A stretch of 64,000 nt of DNA from Lytechinus pictus (GCF_037042905.1 NC_087250.1:7318001-7382000); one strand, 5' to 3'. Positions 2,629-57,794 are shown, numbered from the stretch's first letter. A program made the numbers and translations. The notes: a model not told the origin generated them from the letters alone.

Positions 2629-4067
2629 TATGGCAATCCCTTTTAACATTTATTCACATTTTCTCATCATGCTCATATCAAGAATTAGACATCTTGATAT
2701 CGAGAATTAGATTTCTTGATATCAAAAATGTATTTCTTGATATCAAGTATTAACTTCTTGATATCAAGAATTCACTTCTTCATATCAAGAATCCACTTCT
2801 TGATATCAAGAATTCACTTCTTGATACCATAAATCGTTTTATGATATCAAGAATTCATTTCTTGATATCAAGAATTCACTTCTTGATACCATAAATCGTT
2901 TTATGATATCAAGAATTCACTTCTTGATATATCAAGAATTCACTTCTTGATATCAAGAATTCACTTTTTGATATCCATAAATCGTTTAATGATATCAAGA
3001 ATTCATTCATTTCTTGATATCAAGAATTAACTTCTTGATAGTAAGAATTAACTTCTTGATATCAAGAATTCACTTCTTGATATATCAAGAATTAACGTCT
3101 TGATATCAAGAATTAACTTCTTGATATTAAGAATTCACTTCTTGATATCAAGAATTAACTTCTTGATATATCAAGAATTCACTTCTTGATATCAAGAATT
3201 CACTTCTTGATATTAAGAATTCACTTCTTGATATCAATAATTCACTTCTTGATATCAATAATTCATTTTTTTATAGCAATAATTCATTGTTTTATATCAA
3301 GAAATCGATTCTTGATATCAAGAAAATAATTTGCGTTCGAAATCAAATTGAATTCTTGCAATACATGAATTACGCTCGGTGTCAGAGAAGAATTCTTGAT
3401 ATTAAGAATTCACTTCTTGATATATCAAGAATTCACTTCTTGATATCAAGAATTCACTTTTTGATATCCATAAATCGTTTAATGATATCAAGAATTCATT
3501 CATTTCTTGATATCAAGAATTAACTTCTTGATAGTAAGAATTAACTTCTTGATATCAAGAATTCACTTCTTGATATATCAAGAATTAACGTCTTGATATC
3601 AAGAATTAACTTCTTGATATTAAGAATTCACTTCTTGATATCAAGAATTAACTTCTTGATATCAAGAATTCACTTCTTGATATCAAGAATTAACTTCTTG
3701 ATATCAAGAATTAACTTCTTGATATATCAAGAATTCACTTCTTGATATCAAGAATTCACTTCTTGATATTAAGAATTCACTTCTTGATATCAATAATTCA
3801 CTTCTTGATATCAATAATTCATTTTTTGATAGCAATAATTCATTGTTTTATATCAAGAAATCAATTCTTGATATCAAGAAAATAATTTGCGTTCGAAATC
3901 AAATTGAATTCTTGCAATACATGAATTATATACGCTCGGTGTCAGAGAAGAATTCTTGATATTAAGAAATTAATTCTTGATATCAAGAAATGAATGCTTA
4001 ATTGATATCAAGAAATCTAATTCTTGATATCAGAAAATGTGAATAAATGTTAAAAGGGCTTGCCATA
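2629..4067. mobile_element. TA-flanked TIR element filled with a palindromic 21-bp satellite
   Basis: About 35-bp TIRs (TA)TGGCAATCCCTTTTAACATTTATTCACATTTTCT / AGAAAATGTGAATAAATGTTAAAAGGGCTTGCCA(TA). Confidence 0.85.
2685..4032. repeat. Tandem 21-bp satellite CACTTCTTGATATCAAGAATT with a ~0.5-kb higher-order duplication
   Basis: Dozens of units; the block at about 2916-3408 recurs at about 3409-3965. Confidence 0.95.
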
Positions 4068-14582: not shown

Positions 14583-14684
14583 GTGTGTGTGTGTGTGTGT
14601 ATTTGAGTTTTGTCAGACGTGTATCAATCAGATATGATTATTTACGTCTGGGACCGACCTTTAACGTCACCATCCGAAAGACGT
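14583..14684 (-). mobile_element. 5'-truncated copy of the candidate 7SL-headed SINE
   Basis: Reverse complement matches 29825-29927 essentially exactly, including the (CA)n tail. Confidence 0.85.
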
Positions 14685-15537: not shown

Positions 15538-15767
15538 GTATGGGTTATTAGAAGATAAATGGCAGTTACCATGGTAACTGATGTGATCTATGAAGCGAAG
15601 TTTTTTTTCTTCAGAAATTGGAATAAGTAAATGAAGGTTTCCGTAGTTAGGCCTAATAATGGTGGCGGTGGTGGTAGTAGTGGTGGTGGTGGTGATGTTA
15701 GCTTGTGATATTGGACATACTTATGATAATGACATAAAAGATGATGTTGAACGTGGGGTCTACGAAG

Positions 15768-16441
15768 AATGATGATGATGATGGTGATTATGATGGTGAT
15801 GATGATGATGGTGATGATGATGATGATGGTGATGATGTTGATGATGATGATGGTGATAATAATGATGATCATGATCATGATGATGATAGTGGTGATGATG
15901 ATGGTGATGATGATGGTGGTGATGATGATGATGATGATGGTGATGATCATGATCATGGTGATGATGATGGTGATGATAATGATGATCATGATCATGATCA
16001 TGATGATGACAGTGGTGATGATGATGATGGTGATGATGATGGTGATGGTGATGATGATGATGATGATGGTGATGGTGATGATGGTGATGATAATGATGAT
16101 CATGATGATGATGATGATAGTGGTGATGATGATGATGGTGATGGTGATGATGGTGATGATGGTGATGATAATGATCATGATGATGATGATGATAGTGGTG
16201 ATGATGGTGATGATGATGATGGTGATGGTGATGATGATGATGATGGTGATGATAATGATGATCATGATGATGATGATGATAGTGGTGATGATGATGGTGA
16301 TGATGATGATGGTGATGGTGATGATGATGATGATGGTGATGATAATGATGATCATGATCATGATGATGAAAGTGGTGATGATGGTGATGATGATGATGGT
16401 GGTGATGATGATGATGATGGTGATGATAATGATAATGATAA
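15768..16441. repeat. Compound (GAT/GGT)n microsatellite, intronic
   Basis: Direct inspection. Confidence 0.95.
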
Positions 16442-16698
16442 CTGCAGGAAAAGACACAAATAAATGAGAAAAAGATGAAAAATGAGTGCATTAGAAAAGA
16501 CTGATTAGGAGCAAATTTTCCAATCAAAATTAACTTTAGTTCTTCTTATTGGAACAGTTTTCCGTATTCATTCATGTAAGTAAATAAAAAAGAACACTTC
16601 ATATTAGCGTTGTAACAATGTAATGGGTTATCATGTGAGGAAAACGTCGGAATAGTTATTATTTTAAAAAAAAAATCGTGTTTTTTTTATATATCTAG

Positions 16699-17266: not shown

Positions 17267-17527
17267 GGGTCGTGTGGTCCAGTGGTTAGAGCATTGGACT
17301 CATAATCGCAAGGTTGTGAGTTCGAATCCCAACTCTGCCATTGTCTCCACTTTGATAAAAAGGCCCAAGAGTGATATTTGTCGTCTATTACGTCAGCCAC
17401 TATGACTGATTAACCTAGACGTAAAATGTTTCCAAGGTAATTGGTTATATACCAGCTTGGCGTTTACCAGCAAAAAATGCTGTCCTGCCGAGTTCCTATG
17501 GGAGTTACCACAAACAGAAACAGAAAC
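17267..17527 (+). mobile_element. tRNA-derived SINE
   Basis: A box TGGTCCAGTGG, B box GTTCGAATCC, about 190-nt body and (CAGAAA)n-like tail. Confidence 0.8.
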
Positions 17528-19506: not shown

Positions 19507-20794
19507 TTAAACACTAGTTACATTTTTGTAACCTTTTTTTACAGTTTGATCCCCGGGGTATGATAAGCTTGCCCAAACTTATACGTATACTTACGATTTA
19601 ATATAGCAAGCATACGTTAAAAGAGGAGTTTTATTCAAGTTTGTTGACCTGGCGTGACCTTTGACCTCGGTATTGCGATATGAAGACTGTGTCACATAAT
19701 TTGCTTTACATTGGGTATTTATTATAGAGACATGTTCTATGGAATAGTAAAAACAAAAAAAGAAAACGCTTTTTTGGATACAAAAAAAAGCTCGGCTGCT
19801 TCATTCGCTCGTCTATAATATCTCTCACATCTTATTCTTGCCCACAACATGCTTTCTGTGTTCTTCTGTTTTGCCTGAAATGAACTTTCACCTTGATTTT
19901 GAAACCAGTGGGGGTGTTTTATGAAGTCAATAGCCAGTGAGTATTACTGACAGATGTTTCCCGAGCCAATCAGATGCAAGGATTTCGATAGCTTATAACA
20001 ATTGTCAGTGAAAATCATTGAATGATTATTTGATGGAAAACTCCCCCACATTTTCTGTCACATGATGTGTGACACTAAATTGCCCAGTAGGGTATTGTAT
20101 TTCCAGAGTAATGTTTATCATGGTATCATCTGTAAAAGTTTGATCATAGCAGAGACTCCCATGAACATAGTTCAATTTTTGATGTCGACAACGCTGCGGC
20201 GGCTTTTGCCGACGAAAAAGCGACGCCTGTGTGTCTCGCCTCTGTTACGGCCGCAAAACATTTTGTTGATGCCAGTGTTTTAAGTGTGTTTAATTCATTT
20301 GAAATAATTTTCAATAAGATTAATTGTAAAGGATTTGTAAGTGGTGGTCCATGTATAGTTTGAGAGAGATCATAGAGTTAGATATACTCAGATACTAATA
20401 AGAATAGATGAAGGACTGAAATGTTTTTTATTGATTTATAATTTCTTACTACATTTACTGCATTTTCGTTTCATTGATTCATTGCTTTAATGAAAGTATA
20501 GTTTTTGAAAGAGCTTTGTATGATTGAAAATTATATAGTTCTGTATGAACTCTGTTGTGATTTTGATTTAAGAAATCAAGAAATGAACAGCACTATTAAA
20601 TGGCAATCAATGCATCACTTTGCTAAATATCGAATCTAAAATGGCTACATTTTCACGTATTGCTCCGATTGAGAAAAAAAATGACTAGTTGTCAATTTTA
20701 ATCTGCCTTATTATTAAATAAAAAAGCGTGTGACACATAGCCTCTGTAATTGTCATTATTTGCGGATTTGCCGCATCCCCCGATTTGTAGAAAA

Positions 20795-23375
20795 CCAGCA
20801 AATTCCTTCTCCTCGCCTATAGAGTTCAAGTAGAAGATGATACAAATGTTGGTTCAATTCACTCTCAATTTGAGCTAAAGTTGATTACTAGAGATTTTGT
20901 TTTGAAACAGATTGATATTCTGAGTATAGATAAATCAACTGGGGAAGATCATGTCAGCTGCAAACTTTTAAAGATGACAAAAAATGTTATCGCAGAGTCC
21001 CTTTGTGATATTATTAACAAATCCCTTTCTACTGGAGTTTTTCCTCATGAATGGAAAAAGGCTCGGGTGGTACCAATATTTAAATCTGGTGATATTTCTT
21101 CGTTGAATAATTACCGCCCCATTTCTATATTACCAATCGTAAGTAAAATTTTAGAAAGGGCTGTTCACCAACAGCTAAGTGAATTCTTGGACGTGAATGA
21201 TTTATTACACCCAAATCAATCTGGTTTTCGGCCTATGCATTCAACAACTACTGCCCTTGCAAAACTTGTAAATCAGTGGTCGTTAAACATTGATAACAAT
21301 TTAATTTCTGGAGTTGCGTTCATAGATCTTCGGAAGGCCTTTGATACCGTGGACCATGAGCTGCTTTTAAAGAAATTAGCTTTGCATTGGTTGTAGTAAT
21401 AGGACTATCACTTGGTTCAAATCATATTTATTTGATCGGCAACAAGTGACACAATTCAAAGGAGCCAAATCGCACCCTTCAATCGTCAAATTAGGCGTGC
21501 CACAAGGGTCAATTCTAGGTCCCCTTTTATTTTCAATATATGTTAATAGTTTACCTGAATGTATTCATGAAGGTATCATAGATATGTACGCTGACGACAC
21601 GACACTTACCGTCAGAGCGAATGATGCGACAGTTTTGGAAGAAAAATTAACTGTTGCATTAAACAAGGTCATGGCATGGATTAAAGATAATCAGCTCGTC
21701 CTCAACACTGAAAAAACTTGTGTCATGATAATAGGTTCTCGTGCTAATCTCAGGAAAATAGATTCTTTCACGATTTCGTTAATCGGTGATTTGATAAATA
21801 GAGTTAAACTCACCAAATGCTTAGGAGTTTTGATAGATGAAGAACTGAAATGGTCAAAACAAATTGAAAATGTATGTAAACTTACTCAGAAAAGTATTGG
21901 CATAATAAAGAGAGCGAAAAGTTCTTTGCCTGTGCAGTCCTTAAAGTTGCCTTTTATTACAGTTTAAAGTTGCCAATATTTGATTACTGCTCTGCGGTAT
22001 TGTCGAATGGATTTCAATCCCATACAATTAAGCTGCAAAAAATTCAGAAGAGGGCTGCAAGAATAATATTGAGCAAGACATACGACACACCGTCGGCTGA
22101 TTTGTTCGCAAGTCTTAAAGGGGAATCCAGCCTTGGCCATAAAATGTTGTGTTGGGAAGGAGAAAAATAAATGAAACAGAATGGTGAAAGTTTGAAAGAA
22201 ATCGGACAAGCAATAAAAAAGTTATAGCTGCTTTAAAATTGAGATCATTAATAGTATGTAGAATTCAAATTGGCAACTGGGTAAGTAAATTATGACAAGG
22301 GGCAAGGACAACTTTCCCATAGGCCATGTACTTTATTATCAGGGTTTTGTGGTTTTCTCCTAAGTACCCATTCCCCTGGGGCAGTAATCTAAAAATAACC
22401 CAGGTAGTATATTGTTTTATGTCCTCATGAAAGAAAAATATAATTTGAAATAAAACTTTGGGGAAAATGACATTTTAGCCATAATATGTATTGGAGTACA
22501 TGGAAGAGTAGTCCTTGCCTTACATCACTATGACATCCCATATGCGGCCAATTTGAAGTCTCCATGGGTATAGTGATTACCAATATTTACAACTTTTAAA
22601 AATTCATAACTTTCTTGTTGTTTGTCCAATATTTTTGAAACTTTCACATATCAACTTGTCTGATTTTTCTTTTTCTTATAAAAACAAGTTTTCATTTGGG
22701 TTGAATTCCCCTTTAAATGGATGACACTAGACAAACGATTTGAGCTCAGTCGCGTTTTGATGATATATAAATGTGTTCATAATTTAGCACCTTCTTACCT
22801 TCAGGTAAACTTAACCAATCCAAATGATGTACATGAACATCATACCAGACAGAGAGACAGTGGATATTTACGCGTGCCCAAGTTTCGCACTGATTGTTAT
22901 AAGTGTAGTCCAATTGTATCTTCAATATTTGAATGGAATAAGCTTGATAATTCAATTAGAACAGCTCCTTCTGTCATTTCATTTAAGAGAATGTTTAGAA
23001 GAACTTGTAATTTATAAATAACTTGCGGAACATCCACTGTTGTGCGTATTTTGTGTTAGCATGACCTTGATGATTTGGTGTATATTATCAGTATTTTCAA
23101 GATGTCGTTCTTAGTTAATTTGATTTATTGATATTTGATTATACGTCAAACGAGTGCCCGTCTGCGTTTTGTTTGCTGCTAAGTTTGTTAATGTTTCGTT
23201 TTACATTCAAATTCTAATGTGAATTTTAATGCCGTAACATTCTGTACATACGTTATACATTTTGTAAATATGTTTATTGTTATTCAGGGCCCCATGGAAG
23301 ACCACTACTTATTGGTGAATGGGCTACCCTTTCAAAATATCAGAAACAAATAAATAAATAGATTAAATAAATAAA
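20795..23375 (+). mobile_element. 5'-truncated CR1/L2-group LINE with a disrupted ORF2 reverse transcriptase
   Basis: Motifs NYRPISILP, QSGFR, FIDLRKAFDTVDH, GVPQGSILGPLLF and YADD (21587-21598); frameshifts at about 21380 and 21960; MITE insertion; (TAAA)n tail. Confidence 0.95.
22119..22712 (+). mobile_element. Kolobok-like MITE (family C) inserted in the LINE
   Basis: TTAA TSD; TIR AGGGGAATCC; near-identical copy at 54611-55205. Confidence 0.9.
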
Positions 23376-29224: not shown

Positions 29225-29329
29225 ATGACACCAATGAACTATAATAGTCATACTTTGCAGGAGCATCACGGGGAGATTTAAGTTAACATCTACGATCACA
29301 ACCTTTATATTCCAGTAGATCATACTTCA

Positions 29330-29590
29330 TAGTGTGTTCACAGTGTGCTCACAGTGTGTTCTGTGTGTTCATATTGCATTTAAAGTGTGTTCAAAGTGCG
29401 TTCACAGTATGCTCAAAGTGTGTTCAAAGTGTGTTCACAGTGTGCTAAATGTGTGTTCAAAGTATGTTCAAATTGTGTTCACAGTGCTGCAGTGTGCTCA
29501 TAGTGTGTTCAAAGTGTGTTCACACTGTGTTCACAGTGTGTTCAAAGTGTGTTCACAGTATGCTCAAAGTGTGTTCACAGTATGATCAAA
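29330..29590. repeat. 11-bp minisatellite (CACAGTGTGTT / CAAAGTGTGTT)
   Basis: Direct inspection; degenerate continuation at about 29980-30120. Confidence 0.85.
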
Positions 29591-29660
29591 GGAGGCGCGA
29601 TAGCTCAGTCGAGCGGGGGATTCAGATTCCGGTGACCCGGGTTCGATTCCTTGGTGCGCT
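29591..29660 (+). mobile_element. tRNA-like SINE head
   Basis: A box TAGCTCAGTCG and B box GGTTCGATTCC; followed by a TAGTCTGCTG element like 42967-43121. Confidence 0.65.
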
Positions 29661-29741
29661 AGTAGTCTGCTGTGCAAACCCTTCACTCGAGTAAAGGGTA
29701 TGAATTGCAGCCTACTCATGCCTTGTGTACGCCCTTGTGTA

Positions 29742-29927
29742 CTGGGCGTTGTGGCGTGCGCCTGTAATCCAAGCTGTGGGGAAGTTACAAATTGATGCAG
29801 AGGTTCGAGGTTCGAGCCCTGGTCACGTCTTTCGGATGGTGACGTTAAAGGTCGGTCCCAGACGTAAATAATCATATCTGATTGATACACGTCTGACAAA
29901 ACTCAAATACACACACACACACACACA
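29742..29927 (+). mobile_element. Candidate 7SL (SRP RNA Alu domain)-derived SINE with B box, Deu-like core and (CA)n tail
   Basis: Head CTGGGCGTTGTGGCGTGCGCCTGTAATCCAAGCTGTGGGGAAG; B box GGTTCGAGCCC; core GTCTTTCGGATGGTGACGTTAAAGGTCGGTCCC; second copy at 14583-14684. Confidence 0.75.
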
Positions 29928-30374
29928 GAGAAGGCCCTCTCACTAGTCCTTGCGTAGAGACACACTTGTTGATCAAAGTTTCAATCAAAGTTTCACACTG
30001 TTGACAATAAAACAGTGTAAGTGTTAACAGTGTGTTCACATGCATTGTCGGTATATGAGATTCACATTTGTTGATAAAACACACTTTGAAGATGATTTCC
30101 AAGTGTGAACACAGTGTGGATGCATTGTAGTACGCACTGTGTGGAAACCATGAACCCGTTTCATAAAGACTTGTTATATTAAAAAATGCGCAATTTCTAT
30201 AACAAATTAACGATCAGCCAATAAGATTGAAGGATTTCAGCAGCTTATAACTGTTATTGGAAATTTGTTATTATAAAAACTTTTGTGAAACAGACCCCAT
30301 GTTCTTTGATGCGCCATTTGATTAATGATTTATCAAGTTGAATTTTGTTCCTCACCGGCCATGCTATATAGTAT

Positions 30375-33629: not shown

Positions 33630-36600
33630 TAGAGGTGCCATGAGCCTAATTACATCAGGACGGCTAAAGATATTCGTTCGACCCAACCCATTCGAATTTT
33701 TTCAATTTGATATTGCTGATTGACAAACTCCCGAACTTCCTTTGCCCAAATTGGGAAGATATATCAATGATTTGGAAATATTTTTTTATCTAGCGGAAGA
33801 ATTGGGGCTATTTTACTGTTTCAGTTGATGAATATGATCCCATCATGGCTACACGGGCCTATTAACATTGGGAAAGCAATATAGGCCTATATTCATTCGA
33901 GCCAACCCATTGCTATTTTTTTTATTTTGATATGGCTGATTGACAAATTGTATGCATATGATTGTCCATCTAACACTGATTCTATTTTTGGTAATGACTG
34001 AACTTCCTTTTCCCAAATTGGGAAGAAATATCACCAATTTTGGACTATATTTTGACTGGCGGAAGGATTAGGGCTATTTTGCTGTTTGAGGTGATGAATC
34101 TGCTCCCCCCCGACGGTGTCTTCAAACACGCCAATTTATTTTTAAAATGAGCCGGTCGAGGGACCCTTTTCTGGTCAGATATGGATTGCCAGATATATAT
34201 CCTATCCACTGGTAGTAAACATTCGACCCCCGAATTTCATCCTTATTTTTTATGAATTTTTTAAAGTGCCAATTTAACACACGAGTCTATGGGGAATGAA
34301 TTAGGCCTGTGATACCTGTAATCCAAAATAGGGGAAAATCTCAGTTTTCAGTAAGTCGATGAAATATGTACTAAAACTTGTCAAAAATACTTAATTTTCA
34401 CTAAATATCCACATTTCAATCATCAGGAGATGCAGTAAAGTGGGAGAATTGGGCTAAGCAGGCAGTAAGCAGGTAAGTAACTGATCCATCTATCCATTCA
34501 TCCAGTTTCACCCCCCCCCCCCCTCTCTCTCTCTCTCTCACCCCATCCCCTCTTTCTATACAATATGATATTGTAGAGAAAGAGGGGATGGGGTGAGAGA
34601 GAGGGGGGGTATATATTAATATTTAATACTCTCTCTCTCTCTCTCTCTCATATTTCTTCCTCATTCTCTCTCCATATTAATATAATGCACATTAACTGCA
34701 AAAGAAAATACAAATGTTTAAAGCATGCATACAGTACACATTGGTTTATTGTTTTCTTATCATTCATTTGCAAATTATTTAAGTATGATGAAGGACATTG
34801 CCTTGAGTCCTCTAGCACCCAGTTATGATCAGAAATTGTACATCTTTATACCTCCATGTTGCTAAGTATATCTGCTTGTACATTGCATTCATTTATGGGG
34901 ATACAGTAAGGATTGTGTAAAACACATATAAACATGTACATTTATGGGCTCCATTAAATGAGTCATTACCAAATACATTGGAATTATTGGTGCAATTTTT
35001 TGTTATAATGTGAGTATGGAGGTGTAAAGGAATAGCAAGGAGGCTGAAATAATAAAAAAGAAATACAAGTGAGATATTACAGGCTACACGGGCCTATTAA
35101 CATTGGGAAAGCAAGAGATATTCATTCGAGCCAACCCATTGCTATTTTTTTTATTTTGATATGGCTGATTGACAAATTGTATGCATATGATTGTCCATCT
35201 ATTAAACACTGATTCTATTTTTGGTAATGACTGAACTTCCTTTTCCCAAATTGGGAAGAAATATCACCAATTTTGGATTAGGGCTATTTTGCTGTTTGAG
35301 GTGATGAATCTGCTCCCCCCGACGGTGTCTTCAAACACGCCAATTTATTTTTAAAATCAGCCGGTCGAGGGACCCTTTTCTGGTCAGATATGGATTGCCA
35401 GATATATATCCTATCCACTGGTAGTAAACATTCGACCTCCGAATTTCATCCTTATTTTTTATGAATTTTTTAAAGTGCCAATTCAACACACGAGTCTATG
35501 TGGAATGAATTAGGCCTGTGATACATCATAGTTATCTTCATAAATGGCGATTTATTTTTAAAATAGGGTGGCTACGATACCCTTCTCTGGTCAGATATGG
35601 AATGTCAGATATATATCCTATCCAAAAGTAGTAAAACAAATTCGACCCTCTAATTTCACATTTATTTTTTTTGAATTTTTCTTAAGTGCCATTTTAACAC
35701 ACAAGTCTATGGGGAATGTTTTACGCGCGTGACACCTAGAAGTAATACAGGCAAATTCTCTATAGTGGATGGAATACCTGCCCAAACTCCTCAATAGCAA
35801 ACCTTTTCTAACTGATATCAATATTTTTAGTCATCAAGTGGTGCAAAAAATGGATTTAATGGCTTAGCAAGGCTATATATCAGGTGAAGTTAGTAGGTAT
35901 GTGTATGTAAGCCTAGGAATGCAAATAGACTGGTCAATGAGAGTCTAGGCCTCTTTATGTTCTGATTCATCATTGGTTTTTGCTAGTGTATGATCACCTA
36001 CTTAATGTAAGAAAGACCTTTACAAATTGCTCATGTTAAAATCGTTCTTTGGAATGAGGTAGAGAGGAGATAGAGATTTGTGAACTTTACTGAAGAAAAT
36101 AACTAGAGTGGTACCTTCAATAAGGTATTTATAAAAAGGCACAGAGCAAGGTAAGGTATCTAATAGTGCTCAACTAAGGAGGGAGGGGGGCAGGTGGCTG
36201 TGTACTCCAATCTTAGTCTAGCCCCCCCCCCCTCTTTATAAGCCATGCCATCTATTAACTTATCTTTCTTTCTTTCTTTCTCTCTCTCTCTCCCTTTCTC
36301 TCTCTCTCTTTCTATCTATTTATGTATCTCTTCCTTCTTACATCTGATAGGCAATAGCCCTAGGAAGATTTTGATATAATAGGTCAAATGCAAATGTACT
36401 AAAGTAATATGTTCTCTGTCTCTTATTGTTTCCTCATTCAATCTCATGTATATCTGGTAATTATGTCTGGGGCAGTTCTAGTATCCTGATATCTACACAA
36501 AATTTACATACACCTTTATATTACAAGGAGAATAGGGGCCTATATAATTGTCATTGCATTCACTGTTGGGCTATAGGCAGGTAGGATATGTAGACATCCA

Positions 36601-42966: not shown

Positions 42967-43121
42967 TAGTCTGCAGGCACAGACCTTGATTGAAACGCAA
43001 AGACTCCACGCAAAGACTAGCACATACAAAAATTGTTGTTTAGAGGGCCGTCAGTACACAAGGCATGGGTAGGCTGCAATTCAGACACTTTACTCGAGTG
43101 AAGGGTTTGCACAGCAGACTA
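42967..43121. mobile_element. AcademH-like non-autonomous element
   Basis: TIR TAGTCTGC / GCAGACTA; perfect 9-bp TSD GTTTAAGCC. Confidence 0.8.
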
Positions 43122-43493
43122 GTTTAAGCCCGTCACTCTAACAACAAGTTGTTTATTTTTGATAATTGTTTAAACTTATTAAACAAATTGTTTAAAAAGT
43201 TTAAACAATAGTTGTTAGAGTGACGGGGTTAAACAACGTGTCTAAGCTTTTAAAAGCACTTTTACAGTGCACAAATGTATAAAGTTATAGGCTAATTTAT
43301 TCTCTGTATTTCTAATAGTTGTCTCGAAATGTAAATTTGTTAATAAGGACTAGCTATTTATATCACAGAGTCAGTATACCAAGCATGTTTTTTGTCAACT
43401 CTGTCACTTTAAAATAAAATGGCACTTCGGCCTCTCATATTACCATCTGTTATAATGAATCATACTACGCCTAACTGTGATCCTACAAATTAA

Positions 43494-43979: not shown

Positions 43980-44849
43980 TTTATTTTGTTCACTGCAACC
44001 ACCCTACCTGCGGTGAATCAGATGTAGATGTATGCAACATACAACGCACATTACTTTTGTAACCAAAAATACTAAGTTCCGTTCAGATATGACTTTTTTT
44101 GTTATTAACTTGGGGGTCATTTTTTTTATTCACCAGAGCATTCAAAATCTTTAGTTTTTAGCATATTTTTTGTGTGGGGCCCCTATTGGTGGAAAGTAAA
44201 GTTGGTCTGAATTGTCACCAAGCAATCTCTTTTTAAATCTAAACAAATAGTTTAAAGGATTCAATTTACTTAAGAGCCAAGTTATATGATGAATAGCTGT
44301 AATATATTCTGACAGTGTAAAAAATCAAGCATTCATATCCCCAAGAACAAAAGAAAATAAGCCAAACATTGCCAACCTTATTTCACCACTCAGGGAGTTC
44401 CTACCTAATAAAGGACAATGTTATATCATAACCTTGTACATTGGATTAGTGACATCGGCCTATTATTATACGATGTAAAAGATGTTGTTTTATTTTGAAA
44501 CACGTTGTTTAAAGCCTGTTACTCTATAATATAATATTAAAAAAAAACTTTTAAACAATATTTTTATTTTATAAAATAAATTGTTTAAAACATTGACCAT
44601 TTTAACTTTTAAAGAACATGTTTTTAAAATTTTAAACAATAGATGTTAGATTGACGGGCTTTAACATCGTGCTAACTTTTTTTAAATTGTGTTTTCACAG
44701 TTTTACACAATATGATATCGACTGAATGAATATTGATTGATCTGCATTCATTTCAACACACAAATCAGTAAATTTTATAAATCTATATGAATACATAGTT
44801 ACTTTGTAAGATACTTTCTTTTCATTTAAATATCACCATCATGGCACCG

Positions 44850-45600
<751 letters not shown>

Positions 45601-45877
45601 CGTACTTTTACTTTTACTATCATTATTATTAATATTATTATTTTTATTATTATCATTATCATCATCGTTGTTGTTGTTGTTTTGTTGTTGTCATCATCGT
45701 TATTAGTATCATACTAGAGTAAACATCAAATACCTTTCATGATTATTGTAGCTTCATCAGACTTCTTTGATTCTCTCTTTTCCTTGACAGGAAGCCAGCC
45801 ATTAGAGTACAAGTGGTCAAAATATCGGGATATAATTTGTCTAATCACCAAATGGAAGTACCCGGATGTTCAATATA

Positions 45878-57552: not shown

Positions 57553-57794
57553 CAATGCAAAAACTCCGGTGTTGATTTAACACCAGTCCGGAATCTATTT
57601 ATGTCAACACCAGAGAAGTATTGAAACAACACCAGTTTGGAATCAAACCGATGCTGTTTTAATACTAACTGGTGTTGTATAAACATCTTTCTGGTGTTAG
57701 ACCAAAAAGAAACTGGTGTTGTTTAACACTTCTCTGGTGTGGACATATATAGATTCCGGGCTGGTGTCAAATCAACACCGGAGTTTTTGCAGTG
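57553..57794. mobile_element. TA-flanked palindromic MITE
   Basis: Homologous to 40127-40367. Confidence 0.85.

Follow-up and report, generated by a model that had tools for sequence, protein, structure and literature searches.

A 64,000-nucleotide (nt) stretch of the Lytechinus pictus genome (GCF_037042905.1, NC_087250.1:7318001-7382000), analysed as a whole and hereafter called the window, carries at positions 29741-29927 of the plus strand a short interspersed element (SINE) of 187 nt, which is made up of four main parts and is inserted within an older tRNA-like repeat. We propose that this element probably belongs to a genuine, hybrid-headed SINE family, in which the first ~45 nt would come from the 5′ (Alu) domain of 7SL RNA, the signal-recognition-particle (SRP) RNA. 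The case for 7SL is built on the near-identity of a 31-nt core, on a co-linear start at position 1 of the SRP model and on the presence of the same head in other copies of the family.

The element and its 7SL-like head

From its 5′ end, the element opens with a GC-rich head (29741-29785), in which cmscan with the Rfam model RF00017 recognizes helices 2, 3 and 4 and the U-turn of the 5′ domain of metazoan 7SL/SRP RNA. There follow a linker (29786-29801), whose beginning (TACAAATTGA...) is the first stretch found by pairwise alignment to be homologous to the rear of the tRNA-like head of a related locus, L003, then a partial B box, GGTTCGA (29802-29808), and directly after it the full RNA polymerase III (Pol III) B box, GGTTCGAGCCC (29809-29819). 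The latter aligns with the B-box region of three related loci (L001-L003), agrees with what we take to be the tRNA-type B-box consensus, and lies at the usual distance upstream of the body. The body, or 3′ module, of ~90 nt (29820-29909) is at least 90% identical to that of elements with other heads, and a (CA)9 microsatellite, evident in the sequence, forms the tail (29910-29927). The head, B box, short body and (CA)n tail described by a first-pass annotation made from the sequence alone all lie where it had placed them. Inside the head, a box-A-like decamer (29745-29754) agrees at 8 of its 10 positions with the box A of human 7SL as quoted in part of PMC7245038. No run of four T occurs inside the element, so that Pol III termination would fall in the flank.

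A second copy, 5′-truncated and reduced to the 3′ module and tail, lies on the minus strand at 14583-14684, where blastn finds 100% identity over 102 nt to 29825-29926; its flanks are unrelated to those of the element at 29741-29927. This identical 3′ half had been reported by the first-pass annotation as the sign of a repeated retroposon, a view borne out by this copy and by head-bearing copies on other contigs. In the window itself, a blastn search with the region returned no second copy of the head. With its 187 nt and with flanks that differ between copies, the element is short (<1 kb) and interspersed rather than tandem, as the SINE definition excerpted from SINEBase (PMC3531059) has it.

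The likeness of the head to 7SL was measured against the consensus of the Rfam Metazoa_SRP model (RF00017), not against a natural 7SL sequence. This model, which the first-pass annotation had proposed as a check, matches 29741-29833 at 31.6 bits, with an E-value of 2.2e-6 in a 701-nt search and of 2e-4 in the whole 64-kb window, a score below the Rfam gathering score. The alignment begins at model position 1, exactly at the element's own 5′ end. Counted on the printed alignment, the head equals the consensus at 35 of 45 positions over model positions 1-45, with a single 1-nt insertion, and the agreement is concentrated in a core (model positions 4-34) where 28 of 31 positions are identical, including the whole U-turn stretch, whose conservation had been noted from the start. 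Ungapped, the first 35 positions give 26 identities, near the 27/35 previously given for human 7SL, although our count refers to the Rfam consensus and not to the human molecule.

Moreover, the pairing of the 5′ domain is largely kept: of the 14 base pairs that the model places in helices 2-4, 13 are retained, as counted on the cmscan alignment. Helix 2 keeps its three pairs (3/3), two of them through double-sided changes, and helix 4 likewise keeps 3/3. In helix 3 there are three changed positions, which leave one U-G pair and one U-U mismatch; the earlier statement that the differences in this helix remain pairable thus stands for the first pair and fails for the second. By the pairs of the model, then, the fold of the 5′ domain, with helices 2, 3 and 4 and the U-turn, is present. 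Judged from its sequence, the 5′ end of the element is 7SL-like well beyond chance.

Other copies, the chimeric junction and the insertion site

Because the element reads as an open frame on its minus strand, copies could be sought among the translated products of spurious open reading frames (ORFs). The query, P0001, is the 41-aa translation of 29780-29902 (-), which adjoins the head and excludes it. No protein of near length (22-72 aa) was found with it, and five longer proteins from other contigs were. Four of these five continue into the head: starting at the CVCVC encoded by (CA)n, they cross the body, the B box and the linker and reach the peptide WITGARHNA, while the fifth departs from the shared sequence at the body's 5′ edge. 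As verified by a script, WITGARHNA is the exact reverse-strand translation of 29745-29771, i.e., of 27 nt of the head, in another frame.

A full HMMER scan from one match and a profile search from ten aligned matches enlarged the collection to 30 proteins on 30 contigs. Twelve of them contain the head peptide, as established by regular expression and by reading: eleven in the WITGARHNA frame and one, P0025, in the window's own frame. Substitutions in the head peptide affect five proteins, being single in P0009, P0011, P0017 and P0024 and double in P0010. The linker peptide (in the QFVTS or SICNF frame) also recurs in related proteins. Including the window copy, there are thus 13 head-bearing copies altogether, in which the order head-linker-B box-body is uniform across the window and 12 proteins from 12 contigs, and among which at least three subfamilies can be told apart. 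Past the head, all informative proteins either stop or continue with residues that differ from one to the next, which makes the head the 5′ terminus of a repeat unit at many loci. Beyond the tail, the flanks also differ among proteins, with the exception of P0004 and P0006.

The two latter proteins, from European Nucleotide Archive (ENA) contigs, have similar tail-side flanks (MKISEYVVVIYNFQTEIANQS... and MKITEYVEVLIYNFQTGIANRS..., respectively); they look like the same locus, like orthologous loci of two species that are related, or like a SINE inserted in some other repeat. Among the 20 sequencing runs listed by a word search, none held at least half of the sampled words, 19 of them lying at 0.13-0.18 and one at 0.04.

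A uniform chimeric structure among copies is the argument by which Kojima separates a family from retrocopies, in the part of PMC7245038 that treats this question. On the same argument, and as far as translated sequences can tell, the element belongs to a repeated family and is not a one-off. The first-pass annotation had itself named tRNA heads on other full-length copies as the outcome that would point to an isolated chimera; the result favors a family, since four of the five proteins reached with the head-free query carry the same head.

Relatives with other heads are found in metagenome contigs. An exact 22-mer across the junction of B box and body had no match there, and a 22-mer from the body identified three loci (L001, L002 and L003), with none in genome contigs and none in viral contigs. 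The three loci share the B-box region, the body and the microsatellite tail with the window element at 90% identity or more, and a five-row alignment of the window copy, the copy at 14.6 kb and L001-L003 has 78 invariant columns. The tails end in (CA)n in the 14.6-kb copy and L002, and in (CAAC)n in L003. The 5′ parts of L001-L003 are unrelated to the window head and contain tRNA-like A-box and B-box-like motifs; given these differing heads, the 3′ module is common to several SINE families. It presumably comes from the tail of a long interspersed element (LINE).

The 14583-14684 (-) copy and five of the proteins (P0005, P0012, P0016, P0018 and P0027) end or diverge within ~12 nt of a single point, the 5′ edge of the 3′ module (~29825-29836). 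This common break point could be the border of a LINE-derived tail or a preferred point of truncation.

The comparison with L003 bears on the seam between the two halves. The window sequence TACAAATTGA (29786-29795), together with everything downstream, aligns with the rear of the L003 tRNA-like head, its B box and its body, the linker being in common with L003 from TACAAA onward. In turn, the similarity to SRP RNA stops at about model position 45, which corresponds to 29785/29786, the very point where the homology to L003 starts. We therefore place the junction between 7SL-like and tRNA-SINE sequence at 29785/29786, by alignment on both sides. Since the homology to tRNA-like SINEs runs from 29786 onward, the B box was inherited from the tRNA-SINE parent and not gained, as had initially been supposed by analogy with Alu. 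Taken together, these alignments make it likely that the element is a chimera in which the 7SL 5′ domain is joined to the rear of a tRNA-SINE.

In terms of classification, a 7SL-derived SINE1 family had been proposed, and a family with a 7SL-like head is indeed what was found; this head covers only ~45 nt, with no 3′ 7SL segment, and is joined to a tRNA-SINE. The SINEBase criterion for 7SL derivation, as given in an excerpt of PMC3531059, is an identity to 7SL RNA of 60% or more across an overlap no shorter than 60 nt. Over model positions 1-60 the element is identical to the Rfam consensus at ~39 of 60 positions, almost all of the identity falling within the first 45 nt, so that on sequence it approaches this criterion only marginally. 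Lacking a 3′ 7SL segment and fitting SINEBase only marginally, the element is to be filed, as its sequence reads, as a tRNA-SINE derivative with a 7SL 5′-domain head and not as a standard SINE1.

The chimera sits inside a host repeat, whose left part (29594-29740) begins with a tRNA-like head (29594-29661; Rfam tRNA 25.5 bits, against a gathering score of 29). The stretch 29661-29730 matches 43123-43054 (-) at 66 of 70 positions. The host repeat resumes after the (CA)n tail with its right part (29928-29991), locally aligned to 43020-42983 (-) with a score of 33, the highest among 300 shuffles being 28; on inspection, GAAGGCCCTCT at 29930 is matched by GACGGCCCTCT of the 43-kb copy. This paralogue (42983-43123, minus strand), delimited by blastn and alignments, serves as an "empty site": it lacks the whole 29741-29927 segment as one unit, which identifies the element as a discrete insertion into an older tRNA-like repeat. 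The tRNA-like part of the host repeat is also missing from the 43-kb copy, which adjoins a different element. The tRNA-like match at 29594-29661 was considered as the head of the present SINE and rejected, because it belongs to the host repeat, of which the 43-kb paralogue has no insertion.

Other repeats crowd this neighborhood. Directly upstream of the host repeat lies a tandem array of an 11-nt unit (TTCACAGTGTG; 29326-29581, 23.7 copies, 75% matches), and GTGTTCACA motifs similar to this unit recur at ~30030-30130. The 43-kb copy of the host repeat is adjoined by an element of ~120 nt (43125-43242) resembling a miniature inverted-repeat transposable element (MITE), with long terminal inverted repeats (GTTTAACCCCGTCACTCTAACAAC ... 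GTTGTTAGAGTGACGGGCTTAAAC), which draws spurious plant microRNA (miRNA) matches in cmscan.

Alternatives, and other features of the window

Several observations weigh against the interpretation of 29741-29927 as a copy of a 7SL-headed SINE family. At the gathering threshold, Rfam finds nothing in the window, which contains no 7SL gene, and the 31.6 bits of the head stand against a gathering score of 70. Of the 70 window-wide matches listed, 32 rank above the SRP match; they belong to miRNA families and to plastid untranslated region (UTR) families, coincide with hairpins or tandem arrays and are certainly spurious, which makes E-values soft in so repeat-rich a window. The 7SL-like extent is ~45 nt only, without a 3′ 7SL segment. 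In helix 5 and the 3′ part of the alignment there are 10 flagged non-pairs across a 221-position deletion and no sequence identity; a complete Alu domain, in which 5′ and 3′ 7SL segments are joined after deletion of the S domain, is therefore not what the element has. Folding by free energy gives the head the stability of its shuffles (z -0.1 to -0.2), with the U-turn paired and not free, and for the whole RNA (z -1.4) stability gives no support either.

The family evidence and the mode of insertion also have their adverse points. Eighteen of the 30 proteins are without the head peptide: in three of these (P0014, P0015 and P0019) there are other heads of B-box-like character, in six (P0005, P0012, P0016, P0018, P0027 and, unclearly, P0021) the divergence sets in at the body's 5′ edge, and nine end too early to be informative (P0013, P0020, P0022, P0023, P0026 and P0028-P0031). 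Two of the three protein searches used queries containing the head, so that the 12 of 30 is a biased figure and the four of five an unbiased one. The head is seen as DNA in one copy and in the other 12 as peptides, in which synonymous differences are hidden. Neither junction of the element shows a convincing target-site duplication, and at the left one a 12-nt local duplication of host sequence is left unexplained. A LINE sharing the 3′ end, for which a search had been suggested, is absent from the 64-kb window, where the one LINE bearing a reverse transcriptase (20.8-23.0 kb) has an unrelated 3′ end.

Some of these points could be taken to mean that the head does not come from 7SL at all, being instead a decayed tRNA or another GC-rich Pol III leader whose resemblance would be due to chance or convergence, for instance through a shared box-A-like motif. 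The low score in a window of unreliable E-values, the confinement of the likeness to ~45 nt, the tRNA-like heads of relatives with the same 3′ module and the lack of a thermodynamic signal would all be in keeping with such an origin, which we nevertheless consider unlikely. A core with 28 of 31 positions identical, U-turn included, and co-linear with the model from its first position at the 5′ end of the element, is difficult to reconcile with it, as is the retention of helix 2 by double-sided changes. Furthermore, the Rfam tRNA model has no match on 29741-29833 at E-values up to 10, yet it matches the neighboring host repeat, and ARAGORN calls no tRNA at the head, which is thus not recognizable as a tRNA; on both counts a tRNA-derived head was rejected. 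The heads of L001-L003, for their part, have no Rfam match at E-values up to 1, and SRP-like scores are accordingly not typical of SINE heads.

The family might, on the other hand, be real and 7SL-headed and simply be known already, its lineage having been described or entered in Repbase or Dfam, possibly filed there as tRNA-derived. This, too, seems improbable to us. The architecture found here, with the 5′ 7SL domain only, a tRNA-type B box and a stringent (CA)n tail, differs from that of the 7SL SINEs described in the excerpts of PMC7245038 and PMC13023118. Searches of the full-text literature returned no 7SL-headed SINE in sea urchins, echinoderms or invertebrates at large, a result in which a catalogued sea-urchin SINE with this body could be missed; an 18-nt motif of the body occurs in no paper of the literature searched, and an 11-mer combined with the word "SINE" gave primer matches only.

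A third possibility is that two unrelated insertions happen to be adjacent, a 5′ fragment of a 7SL pseudogene abutting a 5′-truncated tRNA-SINE. The region is a nest of repeats, where such a neighborhood could arise; but the junction of head, linker and B box recurs in 12 other contigs, and the paralogue of the host repeat lacks the whole of 29741-29927 as one unit, which leaves very little probability to this explanation. Least probable of all is a one-off chimeric retrocopy, due to a single template switch from SINE RNA to 7SL RNA and leading to no propagating family: the window does hold only one full-length DNA copy, and chimeric retrocopies of this kind are known, as cited in parts of PMC4758252 and PMC7245038, but the account is already refuted in practice by 12 proteins from 12 other contigs with the same head, linker and body, different flanks on both sides and subfamily differences.

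Beyond the chimeric element and its host repeat, the window contains other features of repetitive origin. At 17268-17340 (+) there is a tRNA-like sequence of 29.0 bits, exactly the Rfam tRNA gathering score, with no ARAGORN call; it has clear A- and B-box motifs followed downstream by non-tRNA sequence, and is probably the head of another tRNA-derived SINE family. A LINE remnant occupies 20791-23017 (+), with two adjacent RVT_1 ORFs in different frames (frameshift at ~21380-21396) and a further ORF reaching 23017; its 3′ end is AT-rich, with (AAATA)-like repeats at ~23340-23375, and is unrelated to the SINE tail. A Pfam scan covered 58 ORFs of at least 81 aa, from a set of 107 ORFs of at least 75 aa that passed a low-complexity filter (125 before it), and left out ORFs of 75-80 aa, those overlapping the element and several in repeat-dense stretches. 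Among the 58 it found RVT_1 on the two LINE ORFs only, plus a sub-threshold DUF4939 on one of these.

Near-perfect long hairpins at 34528-34606 and 57555-57791, probably MITEs or foldback elements, give strong sub-threshold matches to many unrelated miRNA families on both strands. At 2690-3800, an array of ~60-nt units repeatedly matches plastid psbA UTR families below threshold, also on both strands, and is probably a tandem or palindromic satellite, not plastid sequence. Finally, long trinucleotide-type low-complexity tracts at 15588-16545 and 44799-45632 are open in several frames on both strands and yield poly-I/T/D/H/M and poly-L/T/S/Y "ORFs"; they are microsatellite expansions, not genes.

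Proposed origin and comparison with known 7SL SINEs

If the element is a chimera with a 7SL head, as we hold to be probable, it may go back to an exchange between a tRNA-SINE and 7SL RNA or the 7SL gene, by template switch or recombination, an event that would have replaced the front of the tRNA head and whose product would then have been amplified. A similar history is told in the corresponding part of Kojima's paper (PMC7245038), where recombination or template switching is held to have joined 7SL to an older tRNA SINE in the chimeric hagfish element SINE1-1_EBu. Transcription by Pol III would start at the 5′ end, under a hybrid internal promoter composed of a 7SL-type box A (29745-29754) and a tRNA-type box B (29802/29809), with a spacing of 57-64 nt between the two. 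The 3′ module and the microsatellite would be recognized by the reverse transcriptase of a partner LINE of the stringent type, which, through target-primed reverse transcription, would place a copy of the SINE RNA at a new site; the 5′-truncated copies, i.e., the one at 14583-14684 and several of those borne by proteins, fit this mode of insertion. As for the head, the retained ~45-nt Alu 5′ domain could bind SRP9/14 and bring the RNA to ribosomes, as has been proposed for Alu. By analogy, a role in ribosome association may be considered, all the more as Alu retrotransposition, according to Moldovan, Yin and Moran (PMC11760393, in part), requires the 46-nt 5′ Alu domain, which associates with SRP9/14.

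With less than even confidence, we suggest that the family represents yet another independent origin of a 7SL-headed SINE, the first among invertebrates, combining a ~45-nt 5′ Alu domain, a promoter that is half 7SL and half tRNA, and mobilization by a stringent, non-L1 LINE. Were this the case, a lineage with a different architecture would be added to the 7SL SINEs and, the host being an echinoderm, SINE1-like elements would extend beyond vertebrates. Hitch-hiking on ribosomes or on SRP9/14 would then aid SINEs well outside vertebrates and outside L1, the 3′ 7SL segment would prove dispensable in nature, and the element would constitute a natural test of the 46-nt 5′ Alu domain (PMC11760393, in part) as the functional core. 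Moreover, the swapping of heads within the interval between A box and B box would appear as a way in which new SINEs can form. In practice the use is modest, consisting of better repeat annotation and of a marker family for the host clade.

Independent lineages of 7SL-derived SINEs are described as "extremely rare" in an excerpt of Kosushkin et al. (2026, PMC13023118), where they comprise those of supraprimates, of hagfish and, since 2026, of the shrew mole. All of the known ones are said there to have arisen after a central deletion of ~183 nt, as is also the case for the earlier families in part of Kojima (2020, PMC7245038). In the same two excerpts, known 7SL SINEs join a 5′ and a 3′ 7SL segment and end in A-rich or (AAC)n tails.

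The hagfish element SINE1-1_EBu (Eptatretus burgeri; PMC7245038, in part) is the same kind of chimera, of 7SL with an older tRNA SINE, and arose independently of Alu and B1. It contains 96 nt of the 7SL 5′ end and ~44 nt of the 3′ end, hence a complete Alu domain, whereas the window element has ~45 nt of the 5′ domain; its boxes A and B are both of the 7SL type, whereas the B box described here is tRNA-type; and it has a bipartite RTE tail ending in (AAC)n, where the window element ends in (CA)n. In the tree-shrew Tu types and the bushbaby GarnAlu, as excerpted from the same paper (PMC7245038), 7SL-derived and tRNA-SINE-derived sequences are also combined, as they are here. Unlike the present element, where the splice falls within one head, in the interval from box A to box B, these are fusions of whole monomers from a supraprimate SINE1 ancestor.

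With Alu, FLAM, B1 and Urop, the 7SL SINEs of supraprimates and the shrew mole (PMC13023118, in part), the window element shares the same part of 7SL at its 5′ end, with the box-A-like element and the U-turn, and the stretch retained has roughly the length of the 46-nt 5′ domain of Alu (PMC11760393, in part). Those families consist of 7SL sequence only, followed by an A-rich tail, and are mobilized by L1 (PMC13023118, in part). The window element, in contrast, is without a 3′ 7SL part and without an A tail, and combines a tRNA-type B box with a specific 3′ module. Over its rear half it resembles the SINE2 elements L001-L003, whose B-box region, ~90-nt 3′ module and tail match it at the level of identity given above and whose 5′ parts are unrelated to its own.
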